DNA of 64,000 nucleotides from Nitrososphaeria archaeon (lineage in GTDB: Archaea > Thermoproteota > Nitrososphaeria > JACIWG01): contig CAVVXT010000007.1 in assembly GCA_963752255.1 (NCBI GenBank), positions 32,001 to 96,000 on the forward strand. Reading direction: 5' to 3'. The position numbers and the translations under genes are program-made. How positions within the stretch are numbered: position 1 is the first letter of the stretch; every line of letters begins with the position of its first letter. The notes beneath the pieces are model-generated. The model did no database searches. It was not told the DNA's origin and saw only the letters and a list, made by a program, of their open reading frames with translations. Below are positions 6,294-27,850 of the stretch, piece after piece.

Positions 6294-6368
6294 TAATTTA
6301 CTAGTAAATTATTAGGAGGATAACTGCTTTCGAATTCGGTGGGATTTGAACTAATTTGGGTTTAAGTC
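6294..6368 (+). repeat. 75-bp element-end sequence beginning with palindrome TAATTTACTAGTAAATTA; inverted copy at 16146-16220
   Basis: Ungapped manual alignment 54/75 identical, first 26 bp 22/26. Confidence 0.75.
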
Positions 6369-6500
6369 TGCATCGTTATACAACTGTACTCCATAAATTC
6401 GTTGAATATGTCGCAGGCTCTATAAATGTTTTAAATTTTTGGATATTTAGAAAGGTTTAAAACCGTCCAATCATTCAATCAGATTTAAAATGGTGACCGT

Positions 6501-6908
6501 TTGAAAAGGACAATTGCATTAGTTGCACATGATAATAAAAAAAATGATTTAGTGGAGTGGGTTGAATATAACAAAGGGACATTAACCCCCCATAATTTAT
6601 ATGCAACTGGACAAACCGGAAGAAAGATAATCGAGAACACAGGGTTAGAAATAAATCTCCTCAAGGATGGCTCTAGAGGAGGAGACATGGAAATTGGCGC
6701 TCTAATAGCAAACGGGAAATTAGATTACCTGATCTTCTTTTGGGATCCTTTGGAATCTCTTCCCCATGATGTGGACGTTAAAGCACTTCTTAGGATAGCT
6801 GTTCTATATAATATACCCACTGCATGTAATAGGGCAACAGCCGATTTGATAATTTCAAGCCCACTATTTAAGAGCGAAGAATATATGCCAAAAAAGGCGA
6901 CAGAATAA
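6501..6908 (+). CDS. mgsA: Methylglyoxal synthase
   Basis: IALVAHDNKK, ATGQTG, GGDMEIG, DPL..PHDVDVKALLR, ACNRATAD. Confidence 0.95.
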   Translation: MKRTIALVAHDNKKNDLVEWVEYNKGTLTPHNLYATGQTGRKIIENTGLEINLLKDGSRGGDMEIGALIANGKLDYLIFFWDPLESLPHDVDVKALLRIAVLYNIPTACNRATADLIISSPLFKSEEYMPKKATE

Positions 6909-7241
6909 AAATTAATTTAACGATCCCAAGTCTTTTAGTTTTAATCCTAGAGTGCCCTTCAATATCATATCTTATCTCCAATCACTCTCTAGGAAGACAT
7001 TACACAGATTATAGCTCCACAAAGACTAAAAGGGATATAAGATAAAGCTGAGCTAAAAATATTAATTATTGATTAGGTTAGATAGTCTATTCATATACTC
7101 GGAAGCATATTAAAGAAATAGCCATAAGATTCAATTTTAATCTTTATGAAATATCTATTTCCCTTTACTAATAATGTTACCAGTTCAAATTCTTGATCTC
7201 TTTTTTTTAATTGTATATTTCCAGAAAATAGTCCAAACCTT

Positions 7242-7676
7242 TTAACTTCGATTTATTGCACTTTCGTCCACATATATTCTTTTTCTGCATTCGGGACAGA
7301 ATTTTTGCTTGAATCCTCTTCTCCGTAAAGGTTTGAACAGTTTTCTGCAAACACTGCATTCGACCTGATTAGCACTAGGAGATTTAATTATCTTCAATCT
7401 TCTTCCAATTTCAGCTTTAGTTTCAACATCAATCTCAGCCTCAAGCGCATCAGTCAACAGTTGACTAGCCAGTTCTACGCTTTTGTCTCCAAAAAGTTTC
7501 ACAAAAACACTATGCTTATCCGAGCCTATTTGCGCTGGCAACATGCAAACAAAGTTTGAGGGATACTTTTCAGGCCTATCCAAATCAACTACTGCACAGC
7601 GATAGCGTTGCGCCAAAGAAGTTCCACTTGCTCCTTTCATCTTGAATATTTTCAGCTTAACATTCATGTCCATCAA
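7242..7676 (-). CDS. Hypothetical protein with C-terminal Zn finger
   Basis: CSVC...FCPEC. Confidence 0.65.
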   Translation of the reverse strand: MMDMNVKLKIFKMKGASGTSLAQRYRCAVVDLDRPEKYPSNFVCMLPAQIGSDKHSVFVKLFGDKSVELASQLLTDALEAEIDVETKAEIGRRLKIIKSPSANQVECSVCRKLFKPLRRRGFKQKFCPECRKRIYVDESAINRS

Positions 7677-7907
7677 CTAGTTTTTTATGATATAAGATAG
7701 GAAGAGCTAGGATCACAACTAAGATTAGTTAGCTGTTTCTATAGCTTCTCAGTTGTCTAAGCCATTGATAGCTTATGCTCTTAGTGAGATAGCCTCCTTT
7801 AACGGTGTAAAATCTGTTAGGACACATATCTATCAGTTTTTAATAGTGGTCCTCCTATTTAAAGAAGCCCTTATTCTTCAATCAAATAGAGATTTCTTAA
7901 TTTCTAT

Positions 7908-7955
7908 GCCCTTGATCTTGATATAGAGTTCGTCTGCTCTCCATGTGTCGCCAAT
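7908..7955 (-). pseudogene. Fragment of a second IS6-type transposase
   Basis: Encodes IGDTWRADELYIKIKG versus VGDTWRADELYVKIKG in 12815-13927. Confidence 0.8.
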
Positions 7956-8020
7956 AATGCATTTTTATTCTCTTACGCCCATGAAGACAAAACTGAGGAA
8001 CGGATTCTGAGAACTGTTCT

Positions 8021-8299
8021 CTATCTTCTGATTGATGCAATTATCTTCCCGTTCGCATTGTCTCTCACGTTTATCTGCTGGGGGTGCACCTCAAAGTTGA
8101 CATAGCTTAGACAGTCCATAGATTCTTGACTTACCTCTCCATCTGGGCTTCCTGTCGCACCTATTGCAATCAGAACTTTAGAAGCACGCCTGCTCTTTGG
8201 CACACCATTCTTCGAAAGGTATCTTACTACTTCTCTCCTCGTGTAGAACTTCACTCTTTGTTCACACTGTTCGTTGGATGACATACCATTTCCTAACAT
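8021..8299 (-). CDS. Hypothetical protein
   Basis: 92-aa ORF with TTTATATA box upstream; no family recognised. Confidence 0.55.
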   Translation of the reverse strand: MLGNGMSSNEQCEQRVKFYTRREVVRYLSKNGVPKSRRASKVLIAIGATGSPDGEVSQESMDCLSYVNFEVHPQQINVRDNANGKIIASIRR

Positions 8300-8336
8300 T
8301 TATCGAGTGGAGTACTATATAAAGGAAGCTCGGTCT

Positions 8337-8388
8337 GGTTCTGTTAACTTATCGGCTCGTCAATCTTGGTGTTAACCGTCGGCTCATG
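8337..8388 (+). repeat. Left terminal inverted repeat
   Basis: GGTTCTGTTAACTTATCGGCTCGTCAATCTTGGTGTTAACCGTCGGCTCATG, exact reverse complement of 14476-14527. Confidence 0.95.
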
Positions 8389-8404
8389 TCATTTTGTCGG
8401 AGGG

Positions 8405-8815
8405 CTAACCATGAATGTCTTTCAATCTTGTCTTTAGCAATATTTTCTTTCCATCCTTGAAAACAATCTTAGCGTTGTCATCTTCCTTTCCAGCGGGTAT
8501 TCGATATAATCCTGTTCCGTTTTCAAGGATATACTTGGCATGCTCCCTGTTGTTTTCACAAAGGAGACTTTCTCCATTGTAAAGGACAATAAAATCTGCG
8601 ATTGCCTTAGTCGGGCGAACTTCTATCGCTTTGTTACTTGCAATAGGTTCTGTAACTATCGACTTCCTTATGGTAGGATTAATCAGAATTTTCTCTTTCT
8701 GTTTCTCCCTTCTCATTTTTATAGTCTCAAAAATTATGCCTACCCAAATCCCAATAGCTGTAATAATACTTGCTATAATCCCAATAGATGTAAGGTCAAG
8801 ACTTACCATAGGCAC
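8405..8815 (-). CDS. Hypothetical protein with N-terminal TM helix (transposon passenger)
   Basis: Hydrophobic N-terminus followed by a basic stretch. Confidence 0.65.
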   Translation of the reverse strand: MPMVSLDLTSIGIIASIITAIGIWVGIIFETIKMRREKQKEKILINPTIRKSIVTEPIASNKAIEVRPTKAIADFIVLYNGESLLCENNREHAKYILENGTGLYRIPAGKEDDNAKIVFKDGKKILLKTRLKDIHG

Positions 8816-9028
8816 ACCTAATTAAGATACAGAACCCAATGGTTAAAAGGCTTAACTCACACACAAATTTTATATTACGGCTTACCAATTAATATTTGAA
8901 CAATTTGGAAAAAAAAGAAGTTGAACCCCCAGATAAAGAAGTAAAAGAGGTCAAACTCCCAGATAAAGAAGTCAATTTAATGATTCCGCACTTATTCGAT
9001 TGAGTTTTTCCTTCTAATGCTTAAATAT

Positions 9029-9499
9029 TTAAAAATGGAAGATTAATTTTATTATTTCTTGATAGATAACAATAATTAAGAGTGAAATATAGAATAGTAT
9101 AAGCCAATTTTCAGCTTTTGGAAAAAGTGAGAATTTAAGATAATAATAGATGGGTATAGTCAGAAGGAAACTAATGGAAATAACAATTAGCTGTATAGAC
9201 GCAGGAAGATTAGCAAGGTTAGGTATTTTAAGGATTAATGAGGAAATGAAGATTAATGTATAAATCATTAAAGTGAACCAAGATAATAATTTTAAAAATG
9301 CCTCATTATATGAATAGCTCATAAAATGTCCGAAAGACCAGAAAGAAAAAGAGAAGATTATCATAACTGAATAGATTACGAAACTAATCCAATATTGTTG
9401 ATAATCTTTTAGAAGCCCTATTGAGATAGTAAGTATTATTGTTGTAACCAAAAACAATAATTCAAAAACCTTATCAAACTTCTCAATTGGTTTCGGCAA
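9029..9499 (-). CDS. AT-rich multi-pass membrane protein (transposon passenger)
   Basis: About five hydrophobic helices; very AT-rich coding sequence. Confidence 0.6.
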   Translation of the reverse strand: MPKPIEKFDKVFELLFLVTTIILTISIGLLKDYQQYWISFVIYSVMIIFSFSFWSFGHFMSYSYNEAFLKLLSWFTLMIYTLIFISSLILKIPNLANLPASIQLIVISISFLLTIPIYYYLKFSLFPKAENWLILFYISLLIIVIYQEIIKLIFHF

Positions 9500-9550
9500 C
9501 TAAAATCAACATTAAAGTTGATAATCTTATAATCATTTAAACTTTATAGA

Positions 9551-10570
9551 CTAACAAACTTCATTGCCTTGCTTTCGCAAGTAATCCCAATAGCTTGTGT
9601 TTGATACAATCTTCTCAATGGCTTCTTCATCAATGTCTCCATGTTCATCTATTGGCACATGAATTTGTAACTTTGACAATTTTTCTCTGAAACATTTCCT
9701 ACCATAGGAGTAACGCCATATCTGTCGGTTGATGATGTATTGGATAAAAATAAGGGTGCTGGTTTTTAACAGTTTTTTTGGGATGCATACTGCAACATCA
9801 TCTTTAGCTGCAAATCTATAAGGATGATATTTTGTCGTCAATGGACGACCATTATAAGCTATGGTGAGAGTATTAGCGTATATCATATTTTTCGGAACAG
9901 AACAATACTTCACCAAACCATTGCCAGTTTCACCGCAAGAAATCAATGGAATCTTGCCATCAGGCAATTCAGAAGCATTATGATAATCACCACTGTGAAG
10001 TTCAAACACATCCGTGATACCAACATGAGCATACTTTAATTTTGGCTCGGGTATCTCCACCTTGTTAGTTTTGGAAGGTAAAAACTTTTGAATTGTCGCA
10101 TTTTTAAGGACATCTGCGATTTTATCCTGATCAATTTTTCCTTCATTATTTATCGGAAATAAAACGGAAAGTTTCTTGACTTTGTTCATGTAACTTTTTC
10201 TACCATACGAGAACCGCCAACGTTCCCTATTCAAATACGCAATTGTATAAAAAATTGTGGACAACTTTACACCTTCTCTTGGAATACATACCAAAACATT
10301 ATCTTTTGCAGCAAATCTATAAGGATGATAGAAACTTGTTAAAGGTGTACCATCACAAGCAATTGTAACGCAATTCTCATAAGTCTTTGGCAAAGGAATT
10401 TTGAAATATCCTTCTACTCCATGTTCTTCCGTCTTGCATGATATTAACGGTACATCACCTGATTCAAGATGAGAAGAGGCATGATAGTCGCCTGTTTTCA
10501 CTTGAGAAAAAACAGCGTCCACACTAAATCTTGAAAACTTAACTTCACTCATTCTAAGCCCCCCCTTCAT
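9551..10570 (-). CDS. Restriction-modification specificity subunit (BcgIB/HsdS-like, two TRD repeats)
   Basis: Two homologous halves (GDYH..PLISC..YHPYRFAAKD..CIP..WR.SYGRK); overlaps the MTase gene end. Confidence 0.85.
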   Translation of the reverse strand: MKGGLRMSEVKFSRFSVDAVFSQVKTGDYHASSHLESGDVPLISCKTEEHGVEGYFKIPLPKTYENCVTIACDGTPLTSFYHPYRFAAKDNVLVCIPREGVKLSTIFYTIAYLNRERWRFSYGRKSYMNKVKKLSVLFPINNEGKIDQDKIADVLKNATIQKFLPSKTNKVEIPEPKLKYAHVGITDVFELHSGDYHNASELPDGKIPLISCGETGNGLVKYCSVPKNMIYANTLTIAYNGRPLTTKYHPYRFAAKDDVAVCIPKKLLKTSTLIFIQYIINRQIWRYSYGRKCFREKLSKLQIHVPIDEHGDIDEEAIEKIVSNTSYWDYLRKQGNEVC

Positions 10571-12398
10571 GTGAAGTGCGAATCAAATAGGCTACAACAT
10601 CTCGCACAGTTTCCTCAACGCCTTTTTGAATATCATTCAGTGTTGGAACATTCTCATCTAAATAAGCCTCTGAAATCAACTCAAGCTCGGTATCATCGAA
10701 ATCAATTTTTGAGATTTTTTGAGACTCTGGAATACTCTCAACTTGAATATGTGGGTTCATGATGAAGGACTGTACCAAACCTTTAACTCTTTCAAGGTCA
10801 GTGGGGACGTTAGGATCGGCTTTGAGATCAGGAAGACGCTTTCCTTTGATTTTCCGATACCCATCATTTGTTATCTTAATCCAGAGAACACCTTGTTCAT
10901 GAGGGTGTGGATAACCCTTTCTGACGATTATGCCAAGAGAGGGCGGTTGTGATTGTGGGTAAAAGAGGTCTTCAGCGAAAGTAATTACAGAGAGAAGCGT
11001 GTTTCCAGCTAACAGATTTGACCTCCATGACTTGTATACACTTCCTTTGACCATTGTAGAACATGGCAATATAGAGAAAAGCAATCCCCCATCTTCCATT
11101 TGTTCTAATGCATGTTCTATGAAATCGAACTCTTTCTCATTACTTTTTTTCAATGCGAAAGGTGGATTCATCAAAACTTTTGTAATTGCCCTTTGTTCAT
11201 TCTTAACATCTCGTGAAACGAACTTTGCGGACGGTTCAGAATTGATGGTTGTAGCCACAATGCCTCGTGCAAAACAGTTGTCATTAATAATATTGTTTTT
11301 TCCATCTCCTCGAAATATCATGTTGGTTATTGCAAGTGTTGCAACACTTGACTGCAAGTCTACACCGAATATTCGATAAAGCCTAAATGCGTCAAGTTGT
11401 GATTGATTTGAGTTATTTTTCACATGATAAAAACTTGATACCAGAAATCCCCCTGTCCCGCATGTCGGATCGTAAATAACATCTTTGTGCGTGATATTCA
11501 AAACATCAGAAGCAAACTCCGTTATATGTCTTGGAGTTAGAACTATGCCCAAATCCTTTGCACCATTTCCGTATTTTAAGAATGCTTCGTAGAATCTACC
11601 TAATACATCAGAACCTGTCCTCATGGCTGCTTTTATGTTAACTTTCCGTAGTATAAAGAAACCTTGCACCAAAGCCTCTTTGAACCTATTCTTGGCATCC
11701 TGCTTTTCTGGCAATTGTATTTCTATATACTTAAAAAAGTCTTCCTTTCCATTCTTTTTTAATACTTCTTTTGCTCGAACGTTAATATCATTCACGAAAA
11801 CATCAGGGTTGTCATTATAATTCGGTTCAGTTTCCCCTAAGAGTGAAAGAAGCATTGTGGCAACTATGGTTGCTCTTTTATCCTTTCTTATTCCTGCCTC
11901 ATGAAATTTTTTGTTAATGTCATCAGCAGCTTTCAGCAATAGGTCGTCAAGAATATCAAATTCCTTTAAGATTGACGTTTTCTCATACATCAACCTCTTA
12001 GCAATCTCAGGAGTGAGAAGGCTCGTTATTTCCTTTCCTTCATATATTATAGGATGAAACTCCTTTTTTTCTTCAACCCAAAAAGCGTTTCTTACAAGAT
12101 ATTTGTCAATGTCATTTCCTGCTATACCAGTAACAATCATTGCCTTCACAAATTTATGATCATTAAGCAATGTGCCATACCATTTCGCTTCGCTGAACGC
12201 TTTTTCTATTTCCTCAAGAGTTGGCTTTGCTTCAATTACCCAAAAGGCATCTTCAGCTAATTTTACTACATATTCAGGGTGCAGTTTTACCCATTTGCTC
12301 GCAATCTCTCTGTTTTGATGACATTCGTTTTGTGTGTATACTTGCCCATTTGGATCTCTGTTAGGGTTGTTAACATTCCATCCTTTGTCTAAGCTCAT
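10554..12398 (-). CDS. Fused endonuclease/N6-adenine methyltransferase (BcgIA-like, type IIB); probable true start 12498 with a frameshift near 12390
   Basis: PE..VIEAK nuclease-like motif; LTPRH, DPTCGTGGFL and MNPPF gamma-class MTase motifs. Confidence 0.88.
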   Translation of the reverse strand: MSLDKGWNVNNPNRDPNGQVYTQNECHQNREIASKWVKLHPEYVVKLAEDAFWVIEAKPTLEEIEKAFSEAKWYGTLLNDHKFVKAMIVTGIAGNDIDKYLVRNAFWVEEKKEFHPIIYEGKEITSLLTPEIAKRLMYEKTSILKEFDILDDLLLKAADDINKKFHEAGIRKDKRATIVATMLLSLLGETEPNYNDNPDVFVNDINVRAKEVLKKNGKEDFFKYIEIQLPEKQDAKNRFKEALVQGFFILRKVNIKAAMRTGSDVLGRFYEAFLKYGNGAKDLGIVLTPRHITEFASDVLNITHKDVIYDPTCGTGGFLVSSFYHVKNNSNQSQLDAFRLYRIFGVDLQSSVATLAITNMIFRGDGKNNIINDNCFARGIVATTINSEPSAKFVSRDVKNEQRAITKVLMNPPFALKKSNEKEFDFIEHALEQMEDGGLLFSILPCSTMVKGSVYKSWRSNLLAGNTLLSVITFAEDLFYPQSQPPSLGIIVRKGYPHPHEQGVLWIKITNDGYRKIKGKRLPDLKADPNVPTDLERVKGLVQSFIMNPHIQVESIPESQKISKIDFDDTELELISEAYLDENVPTLNDIQKGVEETVRDVVAYLIRTSHEGGA

Positions 12399-12498
12399 TC
12401 TTGATGTAAGTGTAGGATTGAAATTCAGAATCTAAAGATTTTCTTCTCTTTTTTATTACTGCATCCTGTCCTTCAAAAGTTTTTTGGGATTCAACCAT
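12370..12498 (-). pseudogene. Out-of-frame N-terminal segment of the R-M subunit (42 aa)
   Basis: MVESQKTF...SEFQSYTYIKNELR joins DKGW in another frame; ATG lies 6 bp after the abrB-like stop. Confidence 0.7.
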
Positions 12499-12504
12499 AA
12501 CTTT

Positions 12505-12705
12505 TCATCCTTCCCTTAACGGTTCTACTATAATAGCCATTTTTCCGTTTATTACGTTGATTTGCCATTTAAGTTTATCCCCTTCTCTTAAATGAAACTG
12601 TCTCACAAAACCTATGGGAATTGTAGTTCGCAGAGATTTACTTTTTGTGGTTGCTACCGCTATTGTTGTGATTTCTCCTTCTTGGTCTTTTGATTGGTTC
12701 GCCAT
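12505..12705 (-). CDS. AbrB/SpoVT-like DNA-binding protein
   Basis: SLRTTIP..FV....LREGDKLKW swapped-hairpin pattern. Confidence 0.85.
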   Translation of the reverse strand: MANQSKDQEGEITTIAVATTKSKSLRTTIPIGFVRQFHLREGDKLKWQINVINGKMAIIVEPLREG

Positions 12706-12709
12706 CGCT

Positions 12710-12813
12710 TACCTATGGATAGGTGCCTACCTATAAACTTACCTATTAGATTACCAATAGATTTACCTAAAAATTTATATAGTTAGGTAATCATATAGGT
12801 ATGGCGATAGGTA
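12710..12813. promoter_or_regulatory. Divergent promoter with 12-bp-phased TACCTA/TAGGTA repeat array around a TATA box
   Basis: TACC(T/A)A at 12728, 12740, 12752, 12764; TTTATATA at 12774; TAGGTA at 12784, 12796, 12808; palindrome at 12710-12725. Confidence 0.75.
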
Positions 12814-12814
12814 A

Positions 12815-13927
12815 ATGATTAACAATCTGCGTGAACAAAAAGGAAAGGAAATAGCCCAACTTGAAGGGCAAATAAAAAGGATTGACGGTCATTTATACAA
12901 AGTTAACTCCCAAAGTGGTAACGGTGTCTATGATGTTTTCAGCACAGAGTTAGGCTGGAAATGCTCTTGCCTCGACCACCAGTTTCGTGGCGTGAAGTGC
13001 AAGCATATATTCGGGGTTGAGTTCTCACTTGAATTAAGACGAGAGGTCGAAAACTCTATCATAATCAAGCCAGTAAGCATTCAAATATGTCCTGAATGCC
13101 AATCTAATGATATTGTAAAGCATGGTATAAGACACAATGAATCAGTTGACATTCAGAGATACTACTGCAAGGCTTGTGGTAAATGGTTCGTCATTAACTT
13201 AGGATTCGAAAAGATGCACGCCACCCCTCAAATGATAACCTCTGCCATGCAACTCTATTTCACGGGAGAATCATTAAGAAGTGTGCAGAAGTTCTTAAGA
13301 TTACAAGGCGTAAACATATCCCATGTAGCCGTCTATAAGTGGATAAGAAAATATGTAGGTCTAATGGAGAAATATCTTGACCAAATAAAGCCCAACGTTG
13401 GCGATACTTGGAGAGCCGATGAACTTTATGTTAAGATCAAAGGAAATATGAAATATCTCTTTGCACTTATGGACGACGACACACGCTTTTGGATAGCTCA
13501 AGAGGTAGCGGACACAAAATACACCCATGACGCAAGAAGACTATTCCAATTAGGCAAAGAAGCAACTGGAAAGAGACCAGAGACCTTAATCACCGATGGT
13601 CTACCAACTTACCACGACGCATACAAGAAAGAGTTTTACACCAACTATAAGCCGAGAACCGAGCATGTAAAAGAAATTCGTTTAAGCGGGGAAATCCACA
13701 ACAACAAGATGGAGAGGATGAACGGTGAAATCAGGGATAGGGAGAAGGTTATGAGGGGATTAAAGAAGGGCAATACACCAATCCTGAAAGGCTATCAGAT
13801 TTTCCACAACTATCTAAGACCGCATGAGGCGTTAGATGGACAAACCCCTGCTGACAAGTGTGGAATCAAAGTCGAGGGAGATAACAAGTGGATAACATTA
13901 ATACAGAACGCAAGTAAGAATATTTGA
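12815..13927 (+). CDS. IS6-family DDE transposase with N-terminal SWIM finger and Zn ribbon
   Basis: CSC....CKH SWIM; CPEC/CKAC ribbon; WRADELYVK, ITDG..Y, NNKMER catalytic motifs. Confidence 0.92.
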   Translation: MINNLREQKGKEIAQLEGQIKRIDGHLYKVNSQSGNGVYDVFSTELGWKCSCLDHQFRGVKCKHIFGVEFSLELRREVENSIIIKPVSIQICPECQSNDIVKHGIRHNESVDIQRYYCKACGKWFVINLGFEKMHATPQMITSAMQLYFTGESLRSVQKFLRLQGVNISHVAVYKWIRKYVGLMEKYLDQIKPNVGDTWRADELYVKIKGNMKYLFALMDDDTRFWIAQEVADTKYTHDARRLFQLGKEATGKRPETLITDGLPTYHDAYKKEFYTNYKPRTEHVKEIRLSGEIHNNKMERMNGEIRDREKVMRGLKKGNTPILKGYQIFHNYLRPHEALDGQTPADKCGIKVEGDNKWITLIQNASKNI

Positions 13928-13984
13928 CAATCCTCTAATTTTTTTATTGTGGACTAAAGTAAAAAAAATTTATATATTAATTTA

Positions 13985-14356
13985 TTGAATTTACAGAAAA
14001 TGGCACTCAGTTCCGATATTATAACTGTGTTTTTACTCTTTCTTTTTATTTTTATTCCTGTTGCGGTGATATTGCTCTCTAATATTATTTATAATAAATT
14101 AGCAAGAACAGAAGAAGAAGTTGCAGTAGATTATACGGGACAGTTGGTTTCTGGGCTTGTAGCAGGTATAATAGTTGCATCTGCAACATCCTTTACAGAA
14201 CTTAGTCAAATGAACCTTAGCTTTGAAGCAAAAATAACAGTTGGTTTAGTAATTGTGGCAATCATTTTTGCTGTTATGACATTTGGATTGTATATATTTA
14301 CCAAAACCAAATCAAAAAATAAAAAACAAGAGCACACGATTTATCAGTATGACTGA
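13985..14356 (+). CDS. Three-TM membrane protein (transposon passenger)
   Basis: Three hydrophobic helices, basic tail, own TATA box. Confidence 0.6.
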   Translation: MNLQKMALSSDIITVFLLFLFIFIPVAVILLSNIIYNKLARTEEEVAVDYTGQLVSGLVAGIIVASATSFTELSQMNLSFEAKITVGLVIVAIIFAVMTFGLYIFTKTKSKNKKQEHTIYQYD

Positions 14357-14475
14357 TATTCATAGGTTGTATAAGATTTACCCTAACCTTTTGAACCATG
14401 CACAACGAACGCAACACCAATATTTTCCTAAATCGCATGCACAATGGATACATAAGAACCGACCAAAGATTTGAG

Positions 14476-14527
14476 CATGAGCCGACGGTTAACACCAAGA
14501 TTGACGAGCCGATAAGTTAACAGAACC
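14476..14527 (-). repeat. Right terminal inverted repeat
   Basis: Exact reverse complement of 8337-8388. Confidence 0.95.
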
Positions 14528-14954
14528 TGGAAACGGACGTTGACAGAAGTTTATCAATGAAGCCAAAACGTCGATCTAGAACAACCGATGTGGAACTATA
14601 AGTGGTTGCAAGGAGTGTTATGAAAATAACAATACCGCAAGCTAAGAAAGAGAAGTAATCAGTTACGCCAAATACATTCGTCATTATGTGCGATTGCAGA
14701 CCACTAAAATATGTGCTTATTTGCAGGAGTTGTTGTTGAGTGGCTGGTGGAGTAATTATTAAAGCAGGAAATTGGCCAGCTGTGAATATTCCGTTTATGT
14801 TTATGCCTTTTCCAAGCAGACCCATCCATATAATAGGCTGGGCAACAGTGAGAACGAATACAACGGGATTTTTGAACCATTTTATGAGTTCACGACCCGT
14901 TAGCGCTCCCAAACCATGTAGGGGATTGTTCGAATCTCTGGCGTTGCCCGTCAT
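14517..14954 (-). pseudogene. ABC-2 permease truncated by the transposon right end
   Basis: RELIKW..P, DRRFGFIDKLLSTSVSR, then the frame stops inside the TIR; about half the expected length. Confidence 0.85.
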
Positions 14955-14957
14955 ACA

Positions 14958-15878
14958 TCATCGCATCCTTCTTCCTTCTGCTCTTTGCATAGTCTCCCTT
15001 TGCCGAAAAACCGTAACTTTAGATCCTTCCTCTTCCCGCAAACTCTTGCCCGTGAACTCAATGTAAACTTCATCCAGCGTGGGTTTCGCCAATGAAAACC
15101 TTGCCACCTTATATCCTTCCGTTCTCACTGCATCTATTATGTCTGGAGCAGCTTCCTCTCCGTCTTCTACCTTTATCCTATAAGTGCTATCCTGCCTTTT
15201 CACTTCCTTAACTCTTGGAACTCTTTCAATTATGCCAGAAATATCTGTGGCATCTTGGATGCTTAACATTATAATGTCTCCGCCGAGACCTTTTTTCAAA
15301 TCATTTGGAGTGCCAATGGTAACTATTTTTCCATGGTCAATGATGGCAATACGGTCGCAGATCGAGTCAGCCTCTTCCATATAATGCGTTGTCAGAAATA
15401 GAGTCATTAAAAATTCTTTTTTCAACGTTTTGAGGTAATTCCAAGTGGCTGCTCTTGTTTGGACATCTAATCCCAAGGTGGGTTCGTCTAGAAAGAGCAC
15501 TTTAGGGCTGTTAATTAAACTGCAAACAACTTCTAACCTTCTGCGCATTCCTCTCGAGTAAGTTTGAACTTCTTTGTCTTTGAATGCGGTTAACTCAACT
15601 AGGTTCAAGAGTTCCAAGGCACGTTTCTTCGAAATATCCTTTGGAACTCCGTAAAGGGCTGCGCATAACAATATGTTCTGATAGCCTGTTAGATCTTCGT
15701 CGGCAGTATATTCCTGTGGCAACATACCGATCGAGTTCTTGACGCTTGAATTCTGTTTGGCAACATCTTTGCCAAGTATCAAGGCCCTACCTTCTGTTGG
15801 CTTTAGTATTGTGGTGAGCATTTTGATAGTTGTTGTTTTTCCAGCACCATTTGGCCCTAAAAAACCAAAATTCTCGCC
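14958..15878 (-). pseudogene. DrrA-type ABC ATPase lacking its native 5' end
   Basis: GPNGAGKTT, LFLDEPT, TTHYMEEA; sequence upstream of GENFG is the antisense of an HTH gene. Confidence 0.85.
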
Positions 15879-16074
15879 TGATTCGCCGCTTAATGCTTTG
15901 ACTGAAAAGCAAAGACGAGTCCTCATTACGGCGTACAAGTTAGGGTATTATGACTTGCCAAGAAAAATCAGTTCTGAACAATTATCAAGAAAACTCAACC
16001 TTCACAAATCCGCTTTGGCGACGCACCGCAGAAAAGCAGAACTACGCATACTCACTCAGATGCTAAAAGAATAA
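15877..16074 (+). pseudogene. C-terminal HTH_10 (bacterio-opsin activator type) regulator fragment
   Basis: LTEKQRRVL..AY.LGYYD.PRKIS..L...L...K.....H.RKAE. Confidence 0.85.
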
Positions 16075-16145
16075 TGCCGAGGTAGCCACTTGACCAATCA
16101 AAGGGATTTCCCGCATTTTCTCTTAGAAATAACTAATGGAAAAAG

Positions 16146-16244
16146 GACTTAAACCCTTTTGGGTATAGGTCCCACCGAACTTGAACCTAATTGCCCTTCT
16201 AATAATTTACCAGTAGATTTATGCCGAAATCCCACCCCCCACAC
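16146..16244 (+). repeat. Second copy of the 75-bp element end plus a degenerate tRNA-Leu 3' fragment
   Basis: ...TAATTTACCAGTAGATTT then AATCCCACCCCCCACAC-TAAT versus tRNA-Leu AATCCCACCCCCCGCAC-TAAT. Confidence 0.7.
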
Positions 16245-16471
16245 TAATAGACCGAACACGCGATCTCATCTTCAATTAAAACTTTTAGAAAGGTGAATCC
16301 ACACTTTTCGTAGAGTTTCTGCAGTGTTTGAGTTCTTGCAGGACTTTCCACAGACGTTTATTCCAGATAGATGGAAAGGTGATATTTAGGGTTTATTGTC
16401 TCAATCAGTCAAAAGATTACTTCATCCGTCTAATAAAAGGTTAAAAATGTACAAACAATTATAAATTTTAA

Positions 16472-17557
16472 ATGGCAAAAAACATCAAATGGATAGGAAT
16501 CATCATAGGTTTGATCTTAATTGGAATGATACTAGGGATTTCACTTTTCCAAAATGTTACAACGACTTCGCCTTCCACAGTAACATCAACAACCACAGAA
16601 CATTCCACTTATACATCGACCTTTACAACTACATTTCTAACTATGTCGGCAATAACATCGACTCAGACTTTAACTACGACACTGCCAGTAACCATTACAG
16701 CAACTTCTCCGCAATATACTACAGTTACGACAACAGCAACTTCAGTTCAGCCTTCGGGCGAAGTTGTTGGCGTCTATTTTTCCCCCAACGGTGGCTGTGC
16801 GGATAAGGTAGCATATTGGATAAGCCGAGCAAATTCTTCCATACACGTTCTGATATATAGTTTTACGCTCACAAATATCGGTGATTCGTTGATACAGGCA
16901 AAGAATAAGGGTGTAGACGTTAAAGTTGTCTTTGAAAAGAGTCAGGTCAGTCAGGACTCTCAGTATTTCAGGCTCGCAAACGCAGGCTTGGATGTAAGAA
17001 ATGACACTAACCCAGACCTAATGCACAATAAGGTCGCGATAATAGACGGATACATCATAATAACGGGGAGCTTCAACTGGTCCAGTGCTGCAGAGAGTGA
17101 CAACAACGAAAACATGATCATCATAAACAGCAGCAACCTTGCGGTCAGATATGAGGCAGTGTTCCAGCAGATCTGGAGCCTTAGCATATCTACATCAAGT
17201 CAGACCACTAAAACCTCTACAACACTGCCCAGTGCAGTCACCATCTACGAAGCACATTATGATGCTGCAGGAGACGACTGGAACAACTTAAACGATGAAT
17301 ACATTATAATTAAGAACTTTGGAAATGCTGTTGTATCTTTGACAGGATGGCAGCTTGTAGATTCGATTGGGCATACTTTCACATTCCCAGAGTTCTCCTT
17401 GTATCCTGGAGGTACTGTAACTGTTTACACTGGCTCCGGCATGAACACGGTGACTGCGCTTTACTGGGGGTCGGCAAGTCCGATATGGAACAACGACCAT
17501 GATACAGCGTACCTTTACGACCAAAATAGGAACTTGATCGATAAGAAGATCTGGTAA
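16472..17557 (+). CDS. Membrane-anchored or secreted PLD-family (Nuc-like) nuclease with lamin-tail domain
   Basis: Signal anchor; Thr-rich linker; FSPNGG; HNKVAIID..TGSFNW..N.EN; C-terminal DEYIIIKN..LTGW..IWNN..D lamin-tail pattern. Confidence 0.88.
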   Translation: MAKNIKWIGIIIGLILIGMILGISLFQNVTTTSPSTVTSTTTEHSTYTSTFTTTFLTMSAITSTQTLTTTLPVTITATSPQYTTVTTTATSVQPSGEVVGVYFSPNGGCADKVAYWISRANSSIHVLIYSFTLTNIGDSLIQAKNKGVDVKVVFEKSQVSQDSQYFRLANAGLDVRNDTNPDLMHNKVAIIDGYIIITGSFNWSSAAESDNNENMIIINSSNLAVRYEAVFQQIWSLSISTSSQTTKTSTTLPSAVTIYEAHYDAAGDDWNNLNDEYIIIKNFGNAVVSLTGWQLVDSIGHTFTFPEFSLYPGGTVTVYTGSGMNTVTALYWGSASPIWNNDHDTAYLYDQNRNLIDKKIW

Positions 17558-17739
17558 CTCAAAATTTCTCTTACTCAATAATGATTAATGTAGTATAAAG
17601 TATCAATACGCTGCATAAAGAGAGTTAAACTAAAATTTCAGAATCAATTGTCGAGTTTAATTTATGTTAGCCTTTTTTTGTTCTATCTCCAAAAATGCTT
17701 TATATCATAATAATCATTTGATTTCCATCAACTTTTTTT

Positions 17740-17949
17740 CTAAAGTCTGACTTTTCTGTGTCTTGTGTAGTCTAATATCAGTGCACCAATAATAGCCAGC
17801 GTCCCAACGACAGAAAGTGGGAGAAGAAGAATTGGAAGATTTCCTGACTCTGGCAATCCCTGTTGCCCGTTTCTAAGCGTGTAGCTGGAAACTGGTGTAC
17901 TTGTGCCCTGTTCGTAAAGTGTTGAAAGCTTCCTGAGTTTGAAAAGACA
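17740..17949 (-). pseudogene. Orphan C-terminal tail of a surface protein (LPESG, TM helix, basic tail)
   Basis: ...GLPESGNLPILLLPLSVVGTLAIIGALILDYTRHRKVRL*, no suitable start in frame. Confidence 0.45.
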
Positions 17950-18023
17950 TCATGAAGCCCTTATATCCAGTTAAATAGAGAGCTTTTATTCTCAAGTGCT
18001 CAAATAATTTAGAAAAGTTGCTT

Positions 18024-18323
18024 CTAAAGAAAACGTGCTTTCTTTAACTCTCCGTTGACTTTGTTAAATTCTTTGAAGGTGTCTTTTAGTGAAATCGGCG
18101 CCTTTCTCTGCATATATTTACCTGAAATAAAAAGGGCCCATCCAACCGCATCTGATATTGTCGGATCGGGCAACGCTACCAAAGCGATGCCGAAGTTAGA
18201 AATTTTTTTGCCAACATTTGTTGAATGAGTAATGTTATACACTCTGGGCTTTAGAGAATTCGAGTCTATACAAGAACCTGTTTTTTTTAAAAAAGAATAA
18301 TGTTCATCATATTCAGTAGACAC
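18024..18323 (-). CDS. Hypothetical protein
   Basis: 99-aa ORF with GIALVALPDPTISD.VG hydrophobic segment. Confidence 0.5.
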   Translation of the reverse strand: MSTEYDEHYSFLKKTGSCIDSNSLKPRVYNITHSTNVGKKISNFGIALVALPDPTISDAVGWALFISGKYMQRKAPISLKDTFKEFNKVNGELKKARFL

Positions 18324-18450
18324 TTTTTATTTCGTCAACTTTATTTGAATGTTTATTCATTGCTGTTTCTGACTTGTTGGTCTGCTAATTAAATCACTAA
18401 AGGTGCCAAAAATATGGTTCAAAGTTAAAAAATTTTTACCAGTAAAAAAG

Positions 18451-18526
18451 TGCTCCGGCCGGGATTTGAACCCGGGATCTTCGGCTCGAAAGGCCGGAAT
18501 GCTTGACCGGACTACACCACCGGAGC
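18451..18526 (-). tRNA. tRNA-Glu(TTC)
   Basis: GCTCCGG/CCGGAGC acceptor; loop CT-TTC-GA; GGTTCAAATCC. Confidence 0.95.
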
Positions 18527-22934: not shown

Positions 22935-23711
22935 TTATCCTTTAACTATTTTTAATGCTTCCTCTAAACTCTTCCCTTCTATGACTAAGGCTCTTAAAGC
23001 ACCAGCCATTTTAAGAGGCTGATTATGTTGCCAAACATTTCTCCCCACCGCTACCCCATTGCCACCGGCATCTATGACCCCTTTAACATGCTGTAAGAAG
23101 ATCTCTTCAGTGGGAGCTTTTGGGCCGCCTGACATCAAGACCTTCGATTTCCCCGCGGCCTTAACAGCCCAGCTAAACGATGCAGGATCACCTGAGTACT
23201 TTATCTTCACAGCATCAGCCCCGAGCTCATGACCTATCCTCGCTGCGTAGGCAACTATTTCTTTGGTGGTATCATCCTTCACTGCTTCCCCTCTTGGATA
23301 AATCCAAACTACAACTGCCAGGTCGTGTTTCCGAGCTTCTTCCTGAATCTTCCCGAATTCTTGAATCATTAAGCTCTCATACATGCTGCCTGGGTATATG
23401 GTGTAGCCTACTGCTTTAGCGCCCAAACTTACGGCGTATTCGACAGAACAGTTTTGTCTAGCAATTGGATCACCTTTAACGATGTTTGTTTTACCATTTA
23501 CCTTCACAATCAGGGGAACTCTACCATTGTAGTAGTGCTCAGCTAATCCCTTTTGAAAAACGATACCGTTGAAATGCCCCTTTTCAGCAATCTCCATTAT
23601 GAAGCTGGGGTCTATGTTTTTTTGGTTAAAGTCTGTGGGACCGTGCTCTAAGCCTTGATCGTATGCGAGTATTATGGCTCTATCCTTTTCTAGGAACTTA
23701 TCAAAACCCAT
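22935..23711 (-). CDS. fba: Class I fructose-bisphosphate aldolase (archaeal/DhnA type)
   Basis: DQGLEHGP, YPRG, ELGADAVK, SGG, GRNVWQ. Confidence 0.92.
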   Translation of the reverse strand: MGFDKFLEKDRAIILAYDQGLEHGPTDFNQKNIDPSFIMEIAEKGHFNGIVFQKGLAEHYYNGRVPLIVKVNGKTNIVKGDPIARQNCSVEYAVSLGAKAVGYTIYPGSMYESLMIQEFGKIQEEARKHDLAVVVWIYPRGEAVKDDTTKEIVAYAARIGHELGADAVKIKYSGDPASFSWAVKAAGKSKVLMSGGPKAPTEEIFLQHVKGVIDAGGNGVAVGRNVWQHNQPLKMAGALRALVIEGKSLEEALKIVKG

Positions 23712-23825
23712 AGTTATCTAAGCAAAGAGATAGAAAGCGATATATTAACTTTTAACATAAGCCTGTTTTAAAACTGACTTGAGACGTCAAAGATTTAAAT
23801 CATATCAAATAAAATAATGCAAAAA

Positions 23826-24965
23826 TCATTTTTTGAATAAGAGGACGCTCTCAAGGGCTGATCCAATCTTGCGTCTTTCGTGATCAGTAACCGTTCTCCT
23901 GTTAACGTACAGTATCTTTTCCACTTTGAATCCAACGCTTTTGGCCAGTTCTGATATATGTAAATGAACAGGAATGATCCTATCAGGGAAGACCCCTTCG
24001 CCAACGACCATGGCAACTTTCCCTCCGTCTTTCAGAACCCTAAACTGCTCCAGGAGAATCCTTTTAATATCCTTAAGATACGCTTTTCCAACAGCTGGAA
24101 TATCCAAGTCTGAGAAATCTGAGAAATCGCCGGTTACATCAAGCCCAATATAGGATCTGATAGCTTCAGATCTTGATTCTCCGAAGAAGAGCTCATTTTC
24201 CAGAGAATACACTTTCATGTAGTCTATTATGTTAAGATAGGGGGGAGAAGTGATAACGGCATCAAAAGCCGCATCATCAAGGAAATTGAGACTCCTAGCG
24301 TCTCCTTGGAAGACCTTAACCGATGCTCTCTCAGGACCGAACTTCTTTAGATCATTAAACATTCTCTTCACCGTCCTCTTAAACAGCGGCCTGAATGGAG
24401 GAACATTTTTAATCGGACGTATCTTTATATAAGATCCATCCTTGTAAGCGAATGAAACCTTCTCTGAAGATATCATAAGCGCCAGAGTGAAAAAGTTCCG
24501 AATCGTAGGATCTTCGATGCGCGCTATAATACCCTTGAAGAAGATAATATCCTCAAGCGCATATTTTGTAAACGAACGCTTCACCATTGAACTATAAGCA
24601 CTGACATCGGTGGGAACAAATTTGTTCGCAAAGATGTTTCTGGATATCACCTTCATTTTTTCTATGTCATAGTCCATAGTTTTGACTTGGGAGAGAAAGA
24701 TCGACAAAGGCATCACATCAACCCCTATAGAGTTTATTGCACGCTCCTTGCACGAAAGAAGGGTCGTCCCTGAACCACAAAAGGGGTCCAGAACCCATTT
24801 GCCGCCTTTGATCCTAAAGCGATCTAACATAAGAAAAACAAAATCTCGTGAGAAACCTTCTTTAAAATGGAACCAGTTATATATGGGATACCGTTTGTTT
24901 GGAACAAAGGTTATAAGCGGACCCCGATCAAAGTCTTCTTCGACTCTAAAATTACCCATCTGCAA
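23826..24965 (-). CDS. Orphan amino-DNA methyltransferase (SPPY, probably N4-cytosine)
   Basis: DPFCGSGTT and TSPPY. Confidence 0.85.
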   Translation of the reverse strand: MQMGNFRVEEDFDRGPLITFVPNKRYPIYNWFHFKEGFSRDFVFLMLDRFRIKGGKWVLDPFCGSGTTLLSCKERAINSIGVDVMPLSIFLSQVKTMDYDIEKMKVISRNIFANKFVPTDVSAYSSMVKRSFTKYALEDIIFFKGIIARIEDPTIRNFFTLALMISSEKVSFAYKDGSYIKIRPIKNVPPFRPLFKRTVKRMFNDLKKFGPERASVKVFQGDARSLNFLDDAAFDAVITSPPYLNIIDYMKVYSLENELFFGESRSEAIRSYIGLDVTGDFSDFSDLDIPAVGKAYLKDIKRILLEQFRVLKDGGKVAMVVGEGVFPDRIIPVHLHISELAKSVGFKVEKILYVNRRTVTDHERRKIGSALESVLLFKK

Positions 24966-25312
24966 TCATCATTCGTCCTACGGGAGTGAATTTAACAATT
25001 GTGCACAGGCAGCCTCCGTTTACTATCCTTCTTCGCAATCCCTATTTTATTTTATAAGTGCTTGAATTCAAAGTCTATTACTTTCTTAACATAATTTCAC
25101 TATTTATCTAACTATGACAAATGACAAACCTCCTGCCTTCCAAAACCATATTAAATAAAAAATATGGCCCTCAATCTCAGAAAATCTATACCAATTTCCG
25201 CATATAGCGCTAAATATTTCACGTTTGAATACTAATTAATGAAGTGTTAGATGAATGAATATTCGTTATAGAAAGATTTAATATCTCTCCTATTATTTTT
25301 TATGGAGACTAT

Positions 25313-26326
25313 TTGAAGGCCATAATGATTGCTAAACCACATAAGATCGAAGTCGTTGACGTCGAAAGACCGATAATAAACGATACAGAGATATTGGTTA
25401 AGGTTAGGGCTGTAGGAATATGTGCTTCAGAAGTTCACGCATTCGAAGGAACACATCCCTGGAGAGTTCCTCCGGTAATTTCAGGCCATGAATTTTCAGG
25501 CTCAATAGTTGAAGTCGGAAAGGAGGTTAAAGGATTCAGTGCAGGGGATAGCGTTACAGCCTGCCCAATAGCAACATGCGACATATGTGAATACTGTCTA
25601 GCGGGAAGGGACAACATCTGCGATAATATCAGAATCCTTGGGACGCCAAAGTGGCCCGGTCCATTTGCTGAATATGTAAGAATACCTTATTCGATCGCCT
25701 ACAGGTTACCCTCTAGCCTGACCTTTGAGGAGGGAGCTCTCATAGAGCCTCTTACAGTAGGATTACATACTGTGAACAGATCTTCGATAAAGAATGGACA
25801 ATTTGTAGCCGTCTTAGGAGCTGGGGCAATAGGCCTCTGTACGTTAATTATAGCTAAACATTTGGAAATAGCGTCAATAATATCGGATATAGTTGATTTC
25901 AAACTAGATAAAGCAAAGAGTCTTGGAGCGGATTTTATTATTAACCCCAAAAGCGAGGAACTTTACAAAATCGTTAGAGATGCAACAAAGGGCAAAGGAG
26001 TTGATGTAGCGATAGACTGCGCCGGTGTATCTAAGAGTCTCACAGATTCATTGAGCCTTGTGAAGAAGGGTGGAACAGTCGTTGTGACCGCACTGTTTAA
26101 GAAGAGCGTGGAAATGGACCCGGGAACAATTACCACAAGGGAACTTGATGTTCGGGGAGCAATTTTATATACAAAGGCGGAGTTCAAGAAGGCTGTATCA
26201 GTAAGCGAGGGAGTTAGAACCGATCTAAGGCAGCTGATAACACATAGAATGCATTTTGAAGACGCAGAAGAAGCTTTTGGACTGATGCAAAGAGGGGAAG
26301 CAATCAGGATAATGTTGAGCCCATAG
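25313..26326 (+). CDS. Zn-dependent alcohol/polyol dehydrogenase
   Basis: GIC, GHE, CxxCxxC..C, GAGAIG. Confidence 0.92.
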   Translation: MKAIMIAKPHKIEVVDVERPIINDTEILVKVRAVGICASEVHAFEGTHPWRVPPVISGHEFSGSIVEVGKEVKGFSAGDSVTACPIATCDICEYCLAGRDNICDNIRILGTPKWPGPFAEYVRIPYSIAYRLPSSLTFEEGALIEPLTVGLHTVNRSSIKNGQFVAVLGAGAIGLCTLIIAKHLEIASIISDIVDFKLDKAKSLGADFIINPKSEELYKIVRDATKGKGVDVAIDCAGVSKSLTDSLSLVKKGGTVVVTALFKKSVEMDPGTITTRELDVRGAILYTKAEFKKAVSVSEGVRTDLRQLITHRMHFEDAEEAFGLMQRGEAIRIMLSP

Positions 26327-26695
26327 CGTGAAAAGATCTTGAACATTCCTTCTAAAACAGTGCTTAATCTCCTTTATTTCGACTCCATCTTAGAAATCAT
26401 CTTATACATTATTAGCTAATGCTTCTGGTTAAACTTGATGTTGGAGTTTATCTACCATTATTCCAGAATATACATATTATCGCCTAGACTTTCTCTCATT
26501 TTAGATTTTGTAAAATATTCCAGGTGCTAAAGAAAAATGTACAAGCTAAACTGTGTTTTTAGTAACCTTTGTCCACTTGATCTTTTATTAAAACCTCAAG
26601 CTCAGCGAAAAGGCTGAATGCGTGGGTATGGAATCGATAAAATTTAAATCAGTGTTTGCTACAGTCTAGTCGGATATTATCTGAGAGGCGCAATA

Positions 26696-26944
26696 GTGTT
26701 TCTTGTAGTCTTCTTCATTCTAGTCTTCGCTACTCTCGGATACGTTGAACTACCACCTGGAAGAATGATATACAACCTACTTAACGTCCCCGAAACAGAC
26801 TATTCTGTACTCGGAATTGAAGCGACAACTCTAGCTATTTCAGTGTTCAATGGGGTAGTTTATGGACTCATAGCCTGGTTAATCTATACTCTGGTAGCAG
26901 GAAGGGAGAAGAAGGACCAGACCACCAAGAAAAAGTCGAATTAG
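26696..26944 (+). CDS. Small membrane protein
   Basis: Two TM helices, LPPG and NGVVYG. Confidence 0.6.
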   Translation: MFLVVFFILVFATLGYVELPPGRMIYNLLNVPETDYSVLGIEATTLAISVFNGVVYGLIAWLIYTLVAGREKKDQTTKKKSN

Positions 26945-27336
26945 CCTTTTTTTACTATCATTATTTCTTCCAAATAGTAGGTTCACCATCACTGATTGTC
27001 TATAAGATTATATTCAAACTCTCTTAATGAATTTGCATAATCTTTATTTTGCAAAGTAAACACTCTTCATAACTCGAACATCATACTGAATGGCTCAGGT
27101 CTTCTTTATTCGAAATTCGATTACAACTACTCGGGAACTATGGTTCACAGTTCCTCCCAAGACTCGTTTAGCACGATGTCTCTAGTGACTATTCTCCTCT
27201 GTTGTTTCTTATCCAAAAAAGGTCAGAGGAACCTATTCTCTAATCCAGACTCACTAGCCTAAGCAGAAGTAAAGAGGGTGCTTTAAGGAAGATAAGGAAA
27301 CAAATTCAACCAACAGACATTTCCACACATAATAAG

Positions 27337-27353
27337 GTGCGGGGGTGGGATTC
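27337..27353 (-). repeat. Degenerate duplicate of the tRNA-Leu 3' end
   Basis: GTGCGGGGGTGGGATTC versus GTGCGGGGGGTGGGATTC at 27850-27867 (one G fewer). Confidence 0.7.
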
Positions 27354-27451
27354 CCTGACGCATATGTGGGTTCGAATTCCGCGAAGCCAGCCAAGTCGGG
27401 CGTAGAAAAACTAATTACATGCTTCGGCAGTTTCAGATTTTATGAGCGGAA

Positions 27452-27718
27452 TCAAGCACCCCCAGATGTGCCCGCGACCGCCACCTTACTTCGTTGAAGA
27501 GCAACCCGCCTTACGAGGTACAATACTGCACCTGAGAAAATTGCTATAAATGCACCCTGGCTAAATTGTAGAGTATGCTTTCTTGGTCGTACAGATTCGA
27601 AAGGAGTCCAAACGCTATGAACAGGGCGGCCATCCACACAACAATTGCGACGTTCGGGTAGTCGGACCTGCTTCTGCGCCGTACCCCAACAGACGTAGCC
27701 TTGAAAGCATACTGGCAT
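27452..27718 (-). pseudogene. Frameshifted GC-rich membrane-protein fragment
   Basis: Hydrophobic segments split across two frames (VAIVVWMAALFIAFGLL then GAFIAIFSGAVLYLV). Confidence 0.4.
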
Positions 27719-27850
27719 CTCTTAAGGCTTCGTATAGATTATGCCAGATTTATTAATATTTATTGGCTATATTACATATTTAGACATCAATTATTAGCAT
27801 AAATTTTAAGGTTCTTCAGGACATCCCATAATAATTCACTGGTAGATTAG

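Follow-up and report, generated by a model that had tools for sequence, protein, structure and literature searches.

The 64,000-nucleotide stretch analysed here (the window; G000:C7:32001-96000) belongs to the 2.1-Mb genome of an archaeon from peat or soil that is represented by 19 contigs, has a G+C content of 41% and is 94.7% complete. Throughout, G000 denotes this genome, G001 a genome of the same genus, and L numbers denote loci in these two genomes and in public metagenome-assembled genomes (MAGs) and contigs. Among the six tRNA genes predicted in the window by ARAGORN, two are relevant to this work, tRNA-Glu(ttc) and tRNA-Leu(gag), both encoded on the minus strand; the subject of the analysis is a short palindrome (PAL) that lies next to these genes and next to displaced fragments of tRNA 3' ends (Table 1). 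The tRNA calls were taken from ARAGORN and Rfam. A scan of positions 5500-29000 against Rfam, at E-values up to 0.1, yielded three tRNAs and no other known RNA, and the idea that the PAL region is itself a known RNA was dropped, the only matches being tRNAs.

Four PAL copies beside tRNA 3'-end sequence had been proposed in a first-pass annotation, and all four were confirmed at their positions. One point needs correction, in that two types of junction are present. At 18433 and 27832 the true 3' end of a tRNA gene is followed by PAL, whereas at 6294 and 16203 PAL lies on the T-arm side of a displaced tRNA fragment, one that begins in the T arm. The second of these fragments (AAATCCCACCCCCCACAC) is separated from its PAL by ATGCCG and is oriented opposite to tRNA-Leu(gag). 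The window contains four matches to the palindrome at up to three mismatches, compared with 1.00 +/- 0.97 expected, and none of 100 shuffled sequences gave four; the fourth match, at 52713, has three mismatches and no tRNA context and is at the level of chance.

The proposed enrichment near tRNA ends is borne out on the scale of the whole genome. The core motif TTTAC-NN-GTAAA (TTTACNNGTAAA) occurs exactly ten times in G000, and six of these sites are located within 40 bp of a tRNA 3' end or fragment (binomial p 2.5e-13), the feature set comprising 39 tRNA 3' ends and 46 BLAST-defined fragments that together make up 0.33% of the genome. When one mismatch is allowed, 10 of 107 sites are near such features, and for the reversed control pattern the counts are 0/2 (exact) and 0/133 (up to one mismatch). 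By eye, eight of the ten exact sites abut a tRNA end or fragment, some of the fragments being degenerate, and the remaining two (C12:26420 and C12:221979) have no adjoining tRNA end or fragment. In G001, each of the ten sites in the retrieved loci was judged by eye to adjoin a tRNA-like 3' fragment.

Table 1. Features of the window that bear on the PAL junctions and on the two inserts
Feature	Position	Strand	Remarks
PAL, distal inner island end	6294..6311		perfect TAATTTAC-TA-GTAAATTA
Displaced 24-nt copy of tRNA-Glu 3' end	6270..6293	-	distal direct repeat, attR-side core; 1 mismatch, in T-loop
Internal PAL copy	16203..16220		TAATTTACCAGTAGATTT, 2 mismatches
Degenerate tRNA-Leu 3' fragment	16227..16244	+	sense on plus strand, 6 nt past internal PAL
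tRNA-proximal PAL	18433..18449		TTTTTAC-CA-GTAAAAA, abuts 3' end of tRNA-Glu(ttc)
tRNA-Glu(UUC)	18450..18526	-	bases 18450-18473 are the proximal direct repeat
PAL at tRNA-Leu 3' end	27832..27849		TAATTCAC-TG-GTAGATTA, 2 mismatches
tRNA-Leu(GAG)	27850..27935	-	
Displaced 17-nt copy of tRNA-Leu(GAG) 3' end	27337..27353	-	one G shorter than the gene
Mosaic island at tRNA-Glu(UUC)	6294..18449		12,156 bp; absent from orthologous G001 site; no recombinase found
Insert at tRNA-Leu(GAG)	27354..27849		496 bp; absent from G001; PAL at tRNA-proximal end only
Subterminal end module	6312..6375		nested Arg/Pro-like core fragment (6336-6351) and GGGTTTAAGTC box (6358-6368)
Second end-module copy, inverted	16145..16202		GGACTTAAACCC ... 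CCCTTCTAA
Nested unit	8337..14527		perfect 52-bp inverted repeats (8337-8388 / 14476-14527)
Type I restriction-modification S and M genes	9551-12398	-	within the 52-bp inverted-repeat unit
IS6-type DDE transposase	12815-13927	+	within the 52-bp inverted-repeat unit
PLD-like nuclease with lamin-tail domain (cargo)	16472..17557	+	
440-bp repeated module	18009..18449		99-aa open reading frame at 18024-18323 (-)

Comparison with G001, whose flanks are 92-96% identical to those of G000 at the compared sites, reveals clean empty sites at tRNA-Glu(UUC), tRNA-Leu(GAG) and tRNA-Ser(UGA), at which the flank is joined straight to the tRNA gene and PAL is absent. The segment 6294-18449 together with one 24-bp repeat is an insertion, since the left flank in G001 runs into tRNA-Glu without PAL, and PAL belongs to the inserted DNA and not to the native tRNA flank, because the empty sites lack it; a palindrome following tRNAs at such sites had been named as one finding that would speak against the proposed element family. 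T runs are absent from the native tRNA trailers at these sites, and G001 is collinear with G000 over 18450-27353. The third insert, a 3.5-kb element at tRNA-Ser(tga) on contig C19, has PAL at both inner ends and is missing from G001. The inserts are flanked by direct repeats of the tRNA 3' part, with the tRNA gene regenerated; the repeats measure 24 bp for Glu (6270-6293 / 18450-18473), 17/18 bp for Leu and 24-26 bp for Ser. Occupied against empty sites at ~5% flank divergence shows movement after the split of the two lineages. Logan contigs of public runs stop exactly at 6293 and begin at 18450; those of four public runs over 4800-19600 contain no joint across the island, a result compatible with either outcome. 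At tRNA-Ser(tga), the G001 gene (L254) has an A7.C66 mismatch and no encoded CCA, and the G000 gene (L008 2205-2294), beside the island, has an A7-T66 pair and an encoded CCA; the displaced Ser copy in G000 keeps the C66 seen in G001.

The three inserts share one geometry. In the joined site reconstructed for Glu, Ser and Leu(gag), PAL is followed by 24-26 bp (5 nt plus the segment from the T-loop to the 3' end) and by a second PAL, with the two palindrome centres 42 bp apart and the proximal centre 10 nt past the discriminator base. The same register beside different tRNAs, as first suggested, is thus upheld. Near-identical end modules adjoin the Glu, Leu and Ser cores. The duplication of ~24 bp that was part of the first suggestion applies to Glu and Ser and fails for Leu, with its repeat of 17/18 bp. 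Leu-type junctions have five nucleotides (ATGCG or similar) in place of GGGTT, which do not come from the tRNA, and identity with the tRNA therefore begins at CGAATCC.

Both ends of the segment 6294-16220 bear PAL together with one and the same end module (conserved over ~50-70 bp), in inverted orientation. Simple inversions were considered as the origin of this island structure, and no such history could be derived. The end module also contains the GACTTAAACCC box of a second junction type, in which this box precedes displaced tRNA fragments (Arg, Ala) by 4-13 nt; it is present at G000 C19:547204-547245, C19:181745-181790 and C19:490084-490120 and in the window at 6358-6368 and 16145-16156, and one of the boxes is the far end of an element that starts with a 424-aa integrase at tRNA-Arg(tcg). 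A composite of Arg core, ~22 nt, PAL and Leu-like core recurs within and across genera (G000 C12:265599-265661, C10:49448-49530 and C19:77284-77350; G001 L037 7545, L038 9972 and 16782, and L040 6933; L088).

Among 41 related genomes the 18-mer, with up to one mismatch allowed, is common in G000 (7 sites) and G001 (9 sites) and in no other, the remainder having 0-2 sites, near the control. The junction pattern TTTACNNGTAAATTA-N5-CRAATCC was found at 40 loci in one-genome-per-species contigs, 36 of them labelled archaeal, mostly Bathyarchaeota or Thermoproteota, and four labelled bacterial, two of which look like chance; it was also found in at least 112 metagenome stretches, for which at least 80 loci were returned, and gave 0 matches in viral contigs. 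The conserved block in 110 unique public junctions extends over ~45 bp, (A)TATTTTACTGGTAAATTA-GGGTG-CGAATCCCACCCCCCGCACCA, with no conservation beyond it on either side. In a set of 123 junctions the spacing from PAL to the T-loop is fixed at 5 nt, the centre of the palindrome is oriented relative to the core (TG in 62, CA in 10), and the cores are Leu-like in 68 cases, Glu-like in three, Ala-like in three and Ser-like in one, with 48 left without assignment. A tRNA-proximal PAL after the core is present in only one of 124 junctions; it is rare outside this genus and absent at L171, L188, L203, L124 and L097. Inverted palindromic ends, which the first-pass annotation proposed for the elements, are thus not a trait of the family. 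G041 has an array of at least four PAL-plus-core junctions at one tRNA-Leu. At two places, L181 62-195 and G041 L123 16212-16345, a tRNA-Leu is followed directly by a solo PAL and a second core with no element between them.

A tyrosine recombinase accompanies some of these public junctions. L076 has a 1.36-kb element between tRNA-Leu(tag) and PAL plus core, in which a 189-aa open reading frame (ORF) corresponds to the PF00589 catalytic domain. At L161 an integrase of 262 aa (PF00589, E 1.7e-18) starts 108 bp past PAL plus core, and at L203, a tandem array at tRNA-Leu(tag), one of 281 aa (PF00589, E 4e-20) starts 51 bp past it. An integrase is inside the element at L204, L122 and L163, and integrase remnants follow directly after the core at L074/L123, L124 and L097. 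L076 and L203 differ in how the integrase is oriented to the core, and the solved structures nearest to the L203 enzyme are those of archaeal XerA (4a8e, 5hxy). Such a tyrosine recombinase lies beside a few MAG junctions and in none of the islands of G000 and G001. No relatives of the L076 integrase were found in viral contigs. The tyrosine recombinases of 187-199 aa that the L076 query recovers throughout the class were rejected as the PAL enzyme, as they do not lie beside tRNAs or PAL.

Six-frame family searches of G000 gave no match for Cas1 (PF01867; control positive in 7 of 14 genomes), in line with the earlier statement that Cas1 is missing, and none for serine recombinases (PF00239; control positive in 12 of 14 genomes). 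They returned six tyrosine-recombinase matches, none inside a PAL island. Two of these (424 and 481 aa) adjoin tRNA-Arg(tcg) and tRNA-Lys(ttt), and the distal ends of their elements carry the GACTTAAACCC box. The G001 integrases do not adjoin PAL, and no tyrosine recombinase was found in the two inserts of the window. ORF clustering over 20 G000 sites and sites of G001 and G007 gave cargo families only. The only recurrent genes near PAL sites of G000 and G001 encode ABC ATPases, enolase-superfamily enzymes, aldo-keto reductases and helix-turn-helix (HTH) proteins; those near the public junctions encode surface proteins, radical SAM and KaiC-like proteins. At G000 C19:34214-35473 and G001 L040 11288-12568, about 0.5 kb (G000) to 1.3 kb (G001) past a Leu core and thus at the expected place of an integrase, lies the gene of a 420-aa protein whose N terminus forms an HTH and which has a long coiled coil. 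This protein was discarded as a recombinase candidate: it has no recombinase features and no family match, and its look-alike clusters have no family, or an HTH in a minority.

Taken as a whole, the evidence makes it probable that PAL is a conserved, element-borne arm of the attachment site (attP) in a lineage-specific family of tRNA-integrating tyrosine-recombinase elements, and that the islands of the window are decayed or trans-mobilised members of this family with defence cargo. Such an element would carry PAL, 5 nt and a copy of a tRNA 3' end, in this genus with a second PAL after the copy, and would enter by conservative site-specific recombination, with the crossover in the segment of the tRNA from the T-loop to the 3' end. 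After recombination a regenerated tRNA would adjoin one end of the element, and the opposite end would be marked by PAL with a displaced tRNA fragment. A T-loop variant, GGGTTTAAATCCC, is common to element ends at different places in G000 (C7) and G001 (C18), which fits with an element that carries its own core. Conservative exchange is proposed because of this variant, because the repeat length varies by tRNA, and because of the T66/CCA versus C66 pattern at tRNA-Ser. The enzyme is most likely a tyrosine recombinase, of which a small Xer-like one is present in the related MAGs, and PAL, next to the core, may be an arm bound and required by the recombinase or by a helper protein. The 12.2-kb Glu insert and the 0.5-kb Leu insert could be decayed remnants, or blocks of cargo mobilised in trans, as cis-mobilisable elements are.

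Several observations weigh against this interpretation. The link to an integrase is thin, resting on 8 of ~120 public loci; PF00589 is present in just two of the 150 ORFs scanned inside junctions (out of 159 eligible, up to 5 kb inside the junction, at 68 loci), and no family in more than four. This scarcity may arise because most loci stop short of the tRNA-proximal end, the expected position of the gene. There is no recombinase gene in or beside any PAL-bounded island of G000 and G001 (more than 25 junctions), tblastn found no homologue of the L076 integrase in G000, and the genomes of the family hold only matches of 27-39% identity to the L203 integrase. The predicted free joined site, PAL-core-PAL, has no match in viral and metagenome contigs, nor in G000. 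The 440-bp module that bears the Glu-proximal PAL also occurs away from tRNAs, there with a degenerate PAL, and the arrangement of the island, with inverted end modules, the Glu core outside one end and the Leu core outside the other, is not accounted for by this interpretation. The differences between proximal and distal repeats could be ordinary mutation, since the flanks differ by 5-7%.

PAL might instead be a second site of the dif/lox kind, with inverted half-sites and a short spacer, at which a Xer-like recombinase acting in trans swaps, inverts or deletes cargo between tRNA islands on top of integration at the core. We consider this unlikely. The solo PALs at L181 and in G041 (L123 16301) could be scars of such events, and the same end module beside Glu, Leu and Ser cores, the inverted identical modules of 6294-16220 with their different outer cores, the presence of Ser-element cargo without PAL ends in G001 and the closeness of the junction-side integrase to XerA among solved structures are all consistent with it. 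For a tyrosine-recombinase site, however, a 2-bp centre, or a 6-bp ACNNGT spacer with 6-bp arms, is short, and the strong orientation of the centre to the core fits descent as well as function. There is one solo PAL among the 124 pattern-matched junctions, G000 has no recombinase to act on the sites, and direct evidence of a product of PAL-by-PAL recombination is lacking. If true, this explanation would add a layer of cassette exchange that accounts for integrase-less islands, for identical modules at different cores, for solo-PAL scars and for an adaptation-less type I-B CRISPR-Cas block in G000.

We give little probability also to a role of PAL outside recombination, as a regulatory or termination signal at the island edges, where it could be the operator of an ArsR/DUF7347 winged-helix protein or a T-rich stop that ends transcripts of the regenerated tRNA and outward-running transcription. 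Genes for a 166-aa ArsR/DUF7347 protein, at C19:36164-36664 and C19:539187-539687, stop ~150 bp short of PAL, and a relative is present at G001 L038, but an HTH gene of this kind is found at only three sites in G000 and G001, out of more than 25 that were examined. The T runs with which tRNA-proximal copies begin (TTTTTTAC, TTTTAC) and the ordinary genes ending 14-20 nt before PAL at L084, L193, L198, L105 and L162 would suit a terminator; the native trailers at empty sites do without a T run. The fixed 5-nt distance between PAL and T-loop in 123 junctions, with nothing else in the element conserved, is hard to explain unless the junction needs PAL.

Casposons are alike in the inverted-looking ends and the duplicated tRNA 3' segment of the Glu and Ser inserts, and differ in that no Cas1 was found here, neither in the searches above nor in the listed 25 commonest families of the 150 junction ORFs, in that the repeat length is variable, and in that tyrosine recombinases lie beside related junctions. 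The target repeat of casposons is 14-15 bp, and the repeats at these inserts are longer. A transposon-like element, casposon-like or with a new transposase, that has inverted palindromic ends and duplicates ~24 bp by staggered cuts at tRNA 3' ends, as first suspected, is still less probable: PAL at both inner ends of the Glu and Ser inserts of G000, the target direct repeats around the inserts and the use of tRNA 3' ends by family 2 casposons (PMC6563490) fit it, but G000 has no Cas1, the sole DDE transposase of the island sits in a nested unit with 52-bp ends of its own, the repeat length is not fixed (24 versus 17/18 bp), five non-target bases separate PAL from the repeat in Leu-type junctions, the tRNA-proximal PAL is absent at the five public loci listed above, no gene is shared among the 150 ORFs, and a T-loop variant that fits an element-borne core and the tyrosine recombinase at a few related elements point elsewhere.

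The interpretation of PAL as an attP arm places the elements among the tRNA-gene islands of tyrosine integrases (Islander-type, pNOB8-type and the elements of Thaumarchaeota), which likewise pair an intact tRNA with a displaced 3' fragment at the opposite end, are present in one genome where a close relative has the site empty, and form tandem arrays (here G041 L123/L124 and L203). The elements of this work differ in that a conserved 18-bp PAL borders the core in one unvarying register, in many MAGs and at several tRNA species, and in that the islands of G000 and G001 are without an integrase, which is present only in related MAG loci. Blocks flanked by attachment (att) sites and without an integrase are known as CIMEs, and elements that exploit Xer as IMEXs. 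The islands resemble both in being att-bounded blocks without a recombinase gene, and the related integrase is Xer-like in sequence; IMEXs insert at dif, in contrast to the tRNA genes used here, and CIME-like mobilisation in trans is only putative in our case.

The repeats of 17-26 bp are short, as are those reported for integrated thaumarchaeal elements (PMC6563490). In Prochlorococcus, the tycheposons and other tRNA-anchored islands are described, in the text of the preprint (bioRxiv 10.1101/2020.12.28.424599), as cargo at several tRNA genes with partial-tRNA flanks, where tandem and degenerate remnants build larger islands of mostly non-intact DNA, as here; they are bacterial and carry their own integrase, a tyrosine recombinase in 910 of 937, in contrast to the archaeal host and the enzyme-free islands of this work. 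The term 'palindrom*' has no occurrence in the preprint text. Integrases of the SSV type ('suicidal'), which split their own gene upon integration (PMC7253208), are alike in their archaeal host and tRNA targets, and at L161 and L203 the integrase frame is open through core and PAL. PAL could accordingly be read as the coding sequence (Phe-Thr-Gly-Lys-Leu) of such a split integrase, a candidate that was rejected: upstream of PAL its frame stays open no longer than do the two others (medians of 11, 10 and 11 codons in 89 junctions), the palindromes of G000 have an in-frame TAA in the split-integrase frame, and the L161 and L203 enzymes match PF00589 and not PF16795. Overall, the arrangement matches known tRNA-anchored islands and tandem arrays of bacteria and archaea, and the conserved flanking PAL appears to be the new feature: a limited search of the literature, which took in PMC6563490 and PMC8371274, gave no description of a conserved flanking palindrome beside att cores.

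If the attP-arm interpretation holds, the 45-bp signature, comprising PAL, 5 nt and the segment from the T-loop to the 3' end, would make it possible to locate the borders of mobile DNA cheaply and precisely in Bathyarchaeia-like archaea and related Thermoproteota, which are abundant in peat, soil and sediment, have barely charted mobile elements and lack a cultured model. The signature would delimit defence islands even without an integrase, as for type I restriction-modification, the PLD nuclease and the adaptation-less CRISPR-Cas I-B block. PAL junctions would also offer a defined substrate on which a small Xer-like archaeal integrase could be tested in vitro, and the recombinase-free junctions, more than 25 in two nearly complete genomes, raise the testable question of what moves these blocks.

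The cargo of the 12.2-kb island is a mosaic that also includes an MGS-like gene and ABC transporter genes, and pieces of it are scattered in G001 at 66-97% identity. The 52-bp inverted repeat that brackets the restriction-modification genes and the IS6-type transposase gives them the look of a transposon-like unit nested in the island. Copies of the 440-bp module without a tRNA lie at G000 C14:143137-143578 and on G001 C12 and C18. On contig C19 of G000 (C19:36005-50189; L011 2005-16190), a type I-B cas6-cas8b-cas7-cas5-cas3 block without an adaptation module is located between two PAL junctions; it is flanked by two mini-arrays of 2.4-2.5 repeats, and the region has no match in G001. Finally, at G000 C3:166866-168967 (L002/L007), tRNA-Cys has as its neighbour an SSV-type integrase (PF16795) that is interrupted by one in-frame TAA, and a perfect 45-nt copy of the 3' part of this tRNA is present 2 kb away in the opposite orientation.

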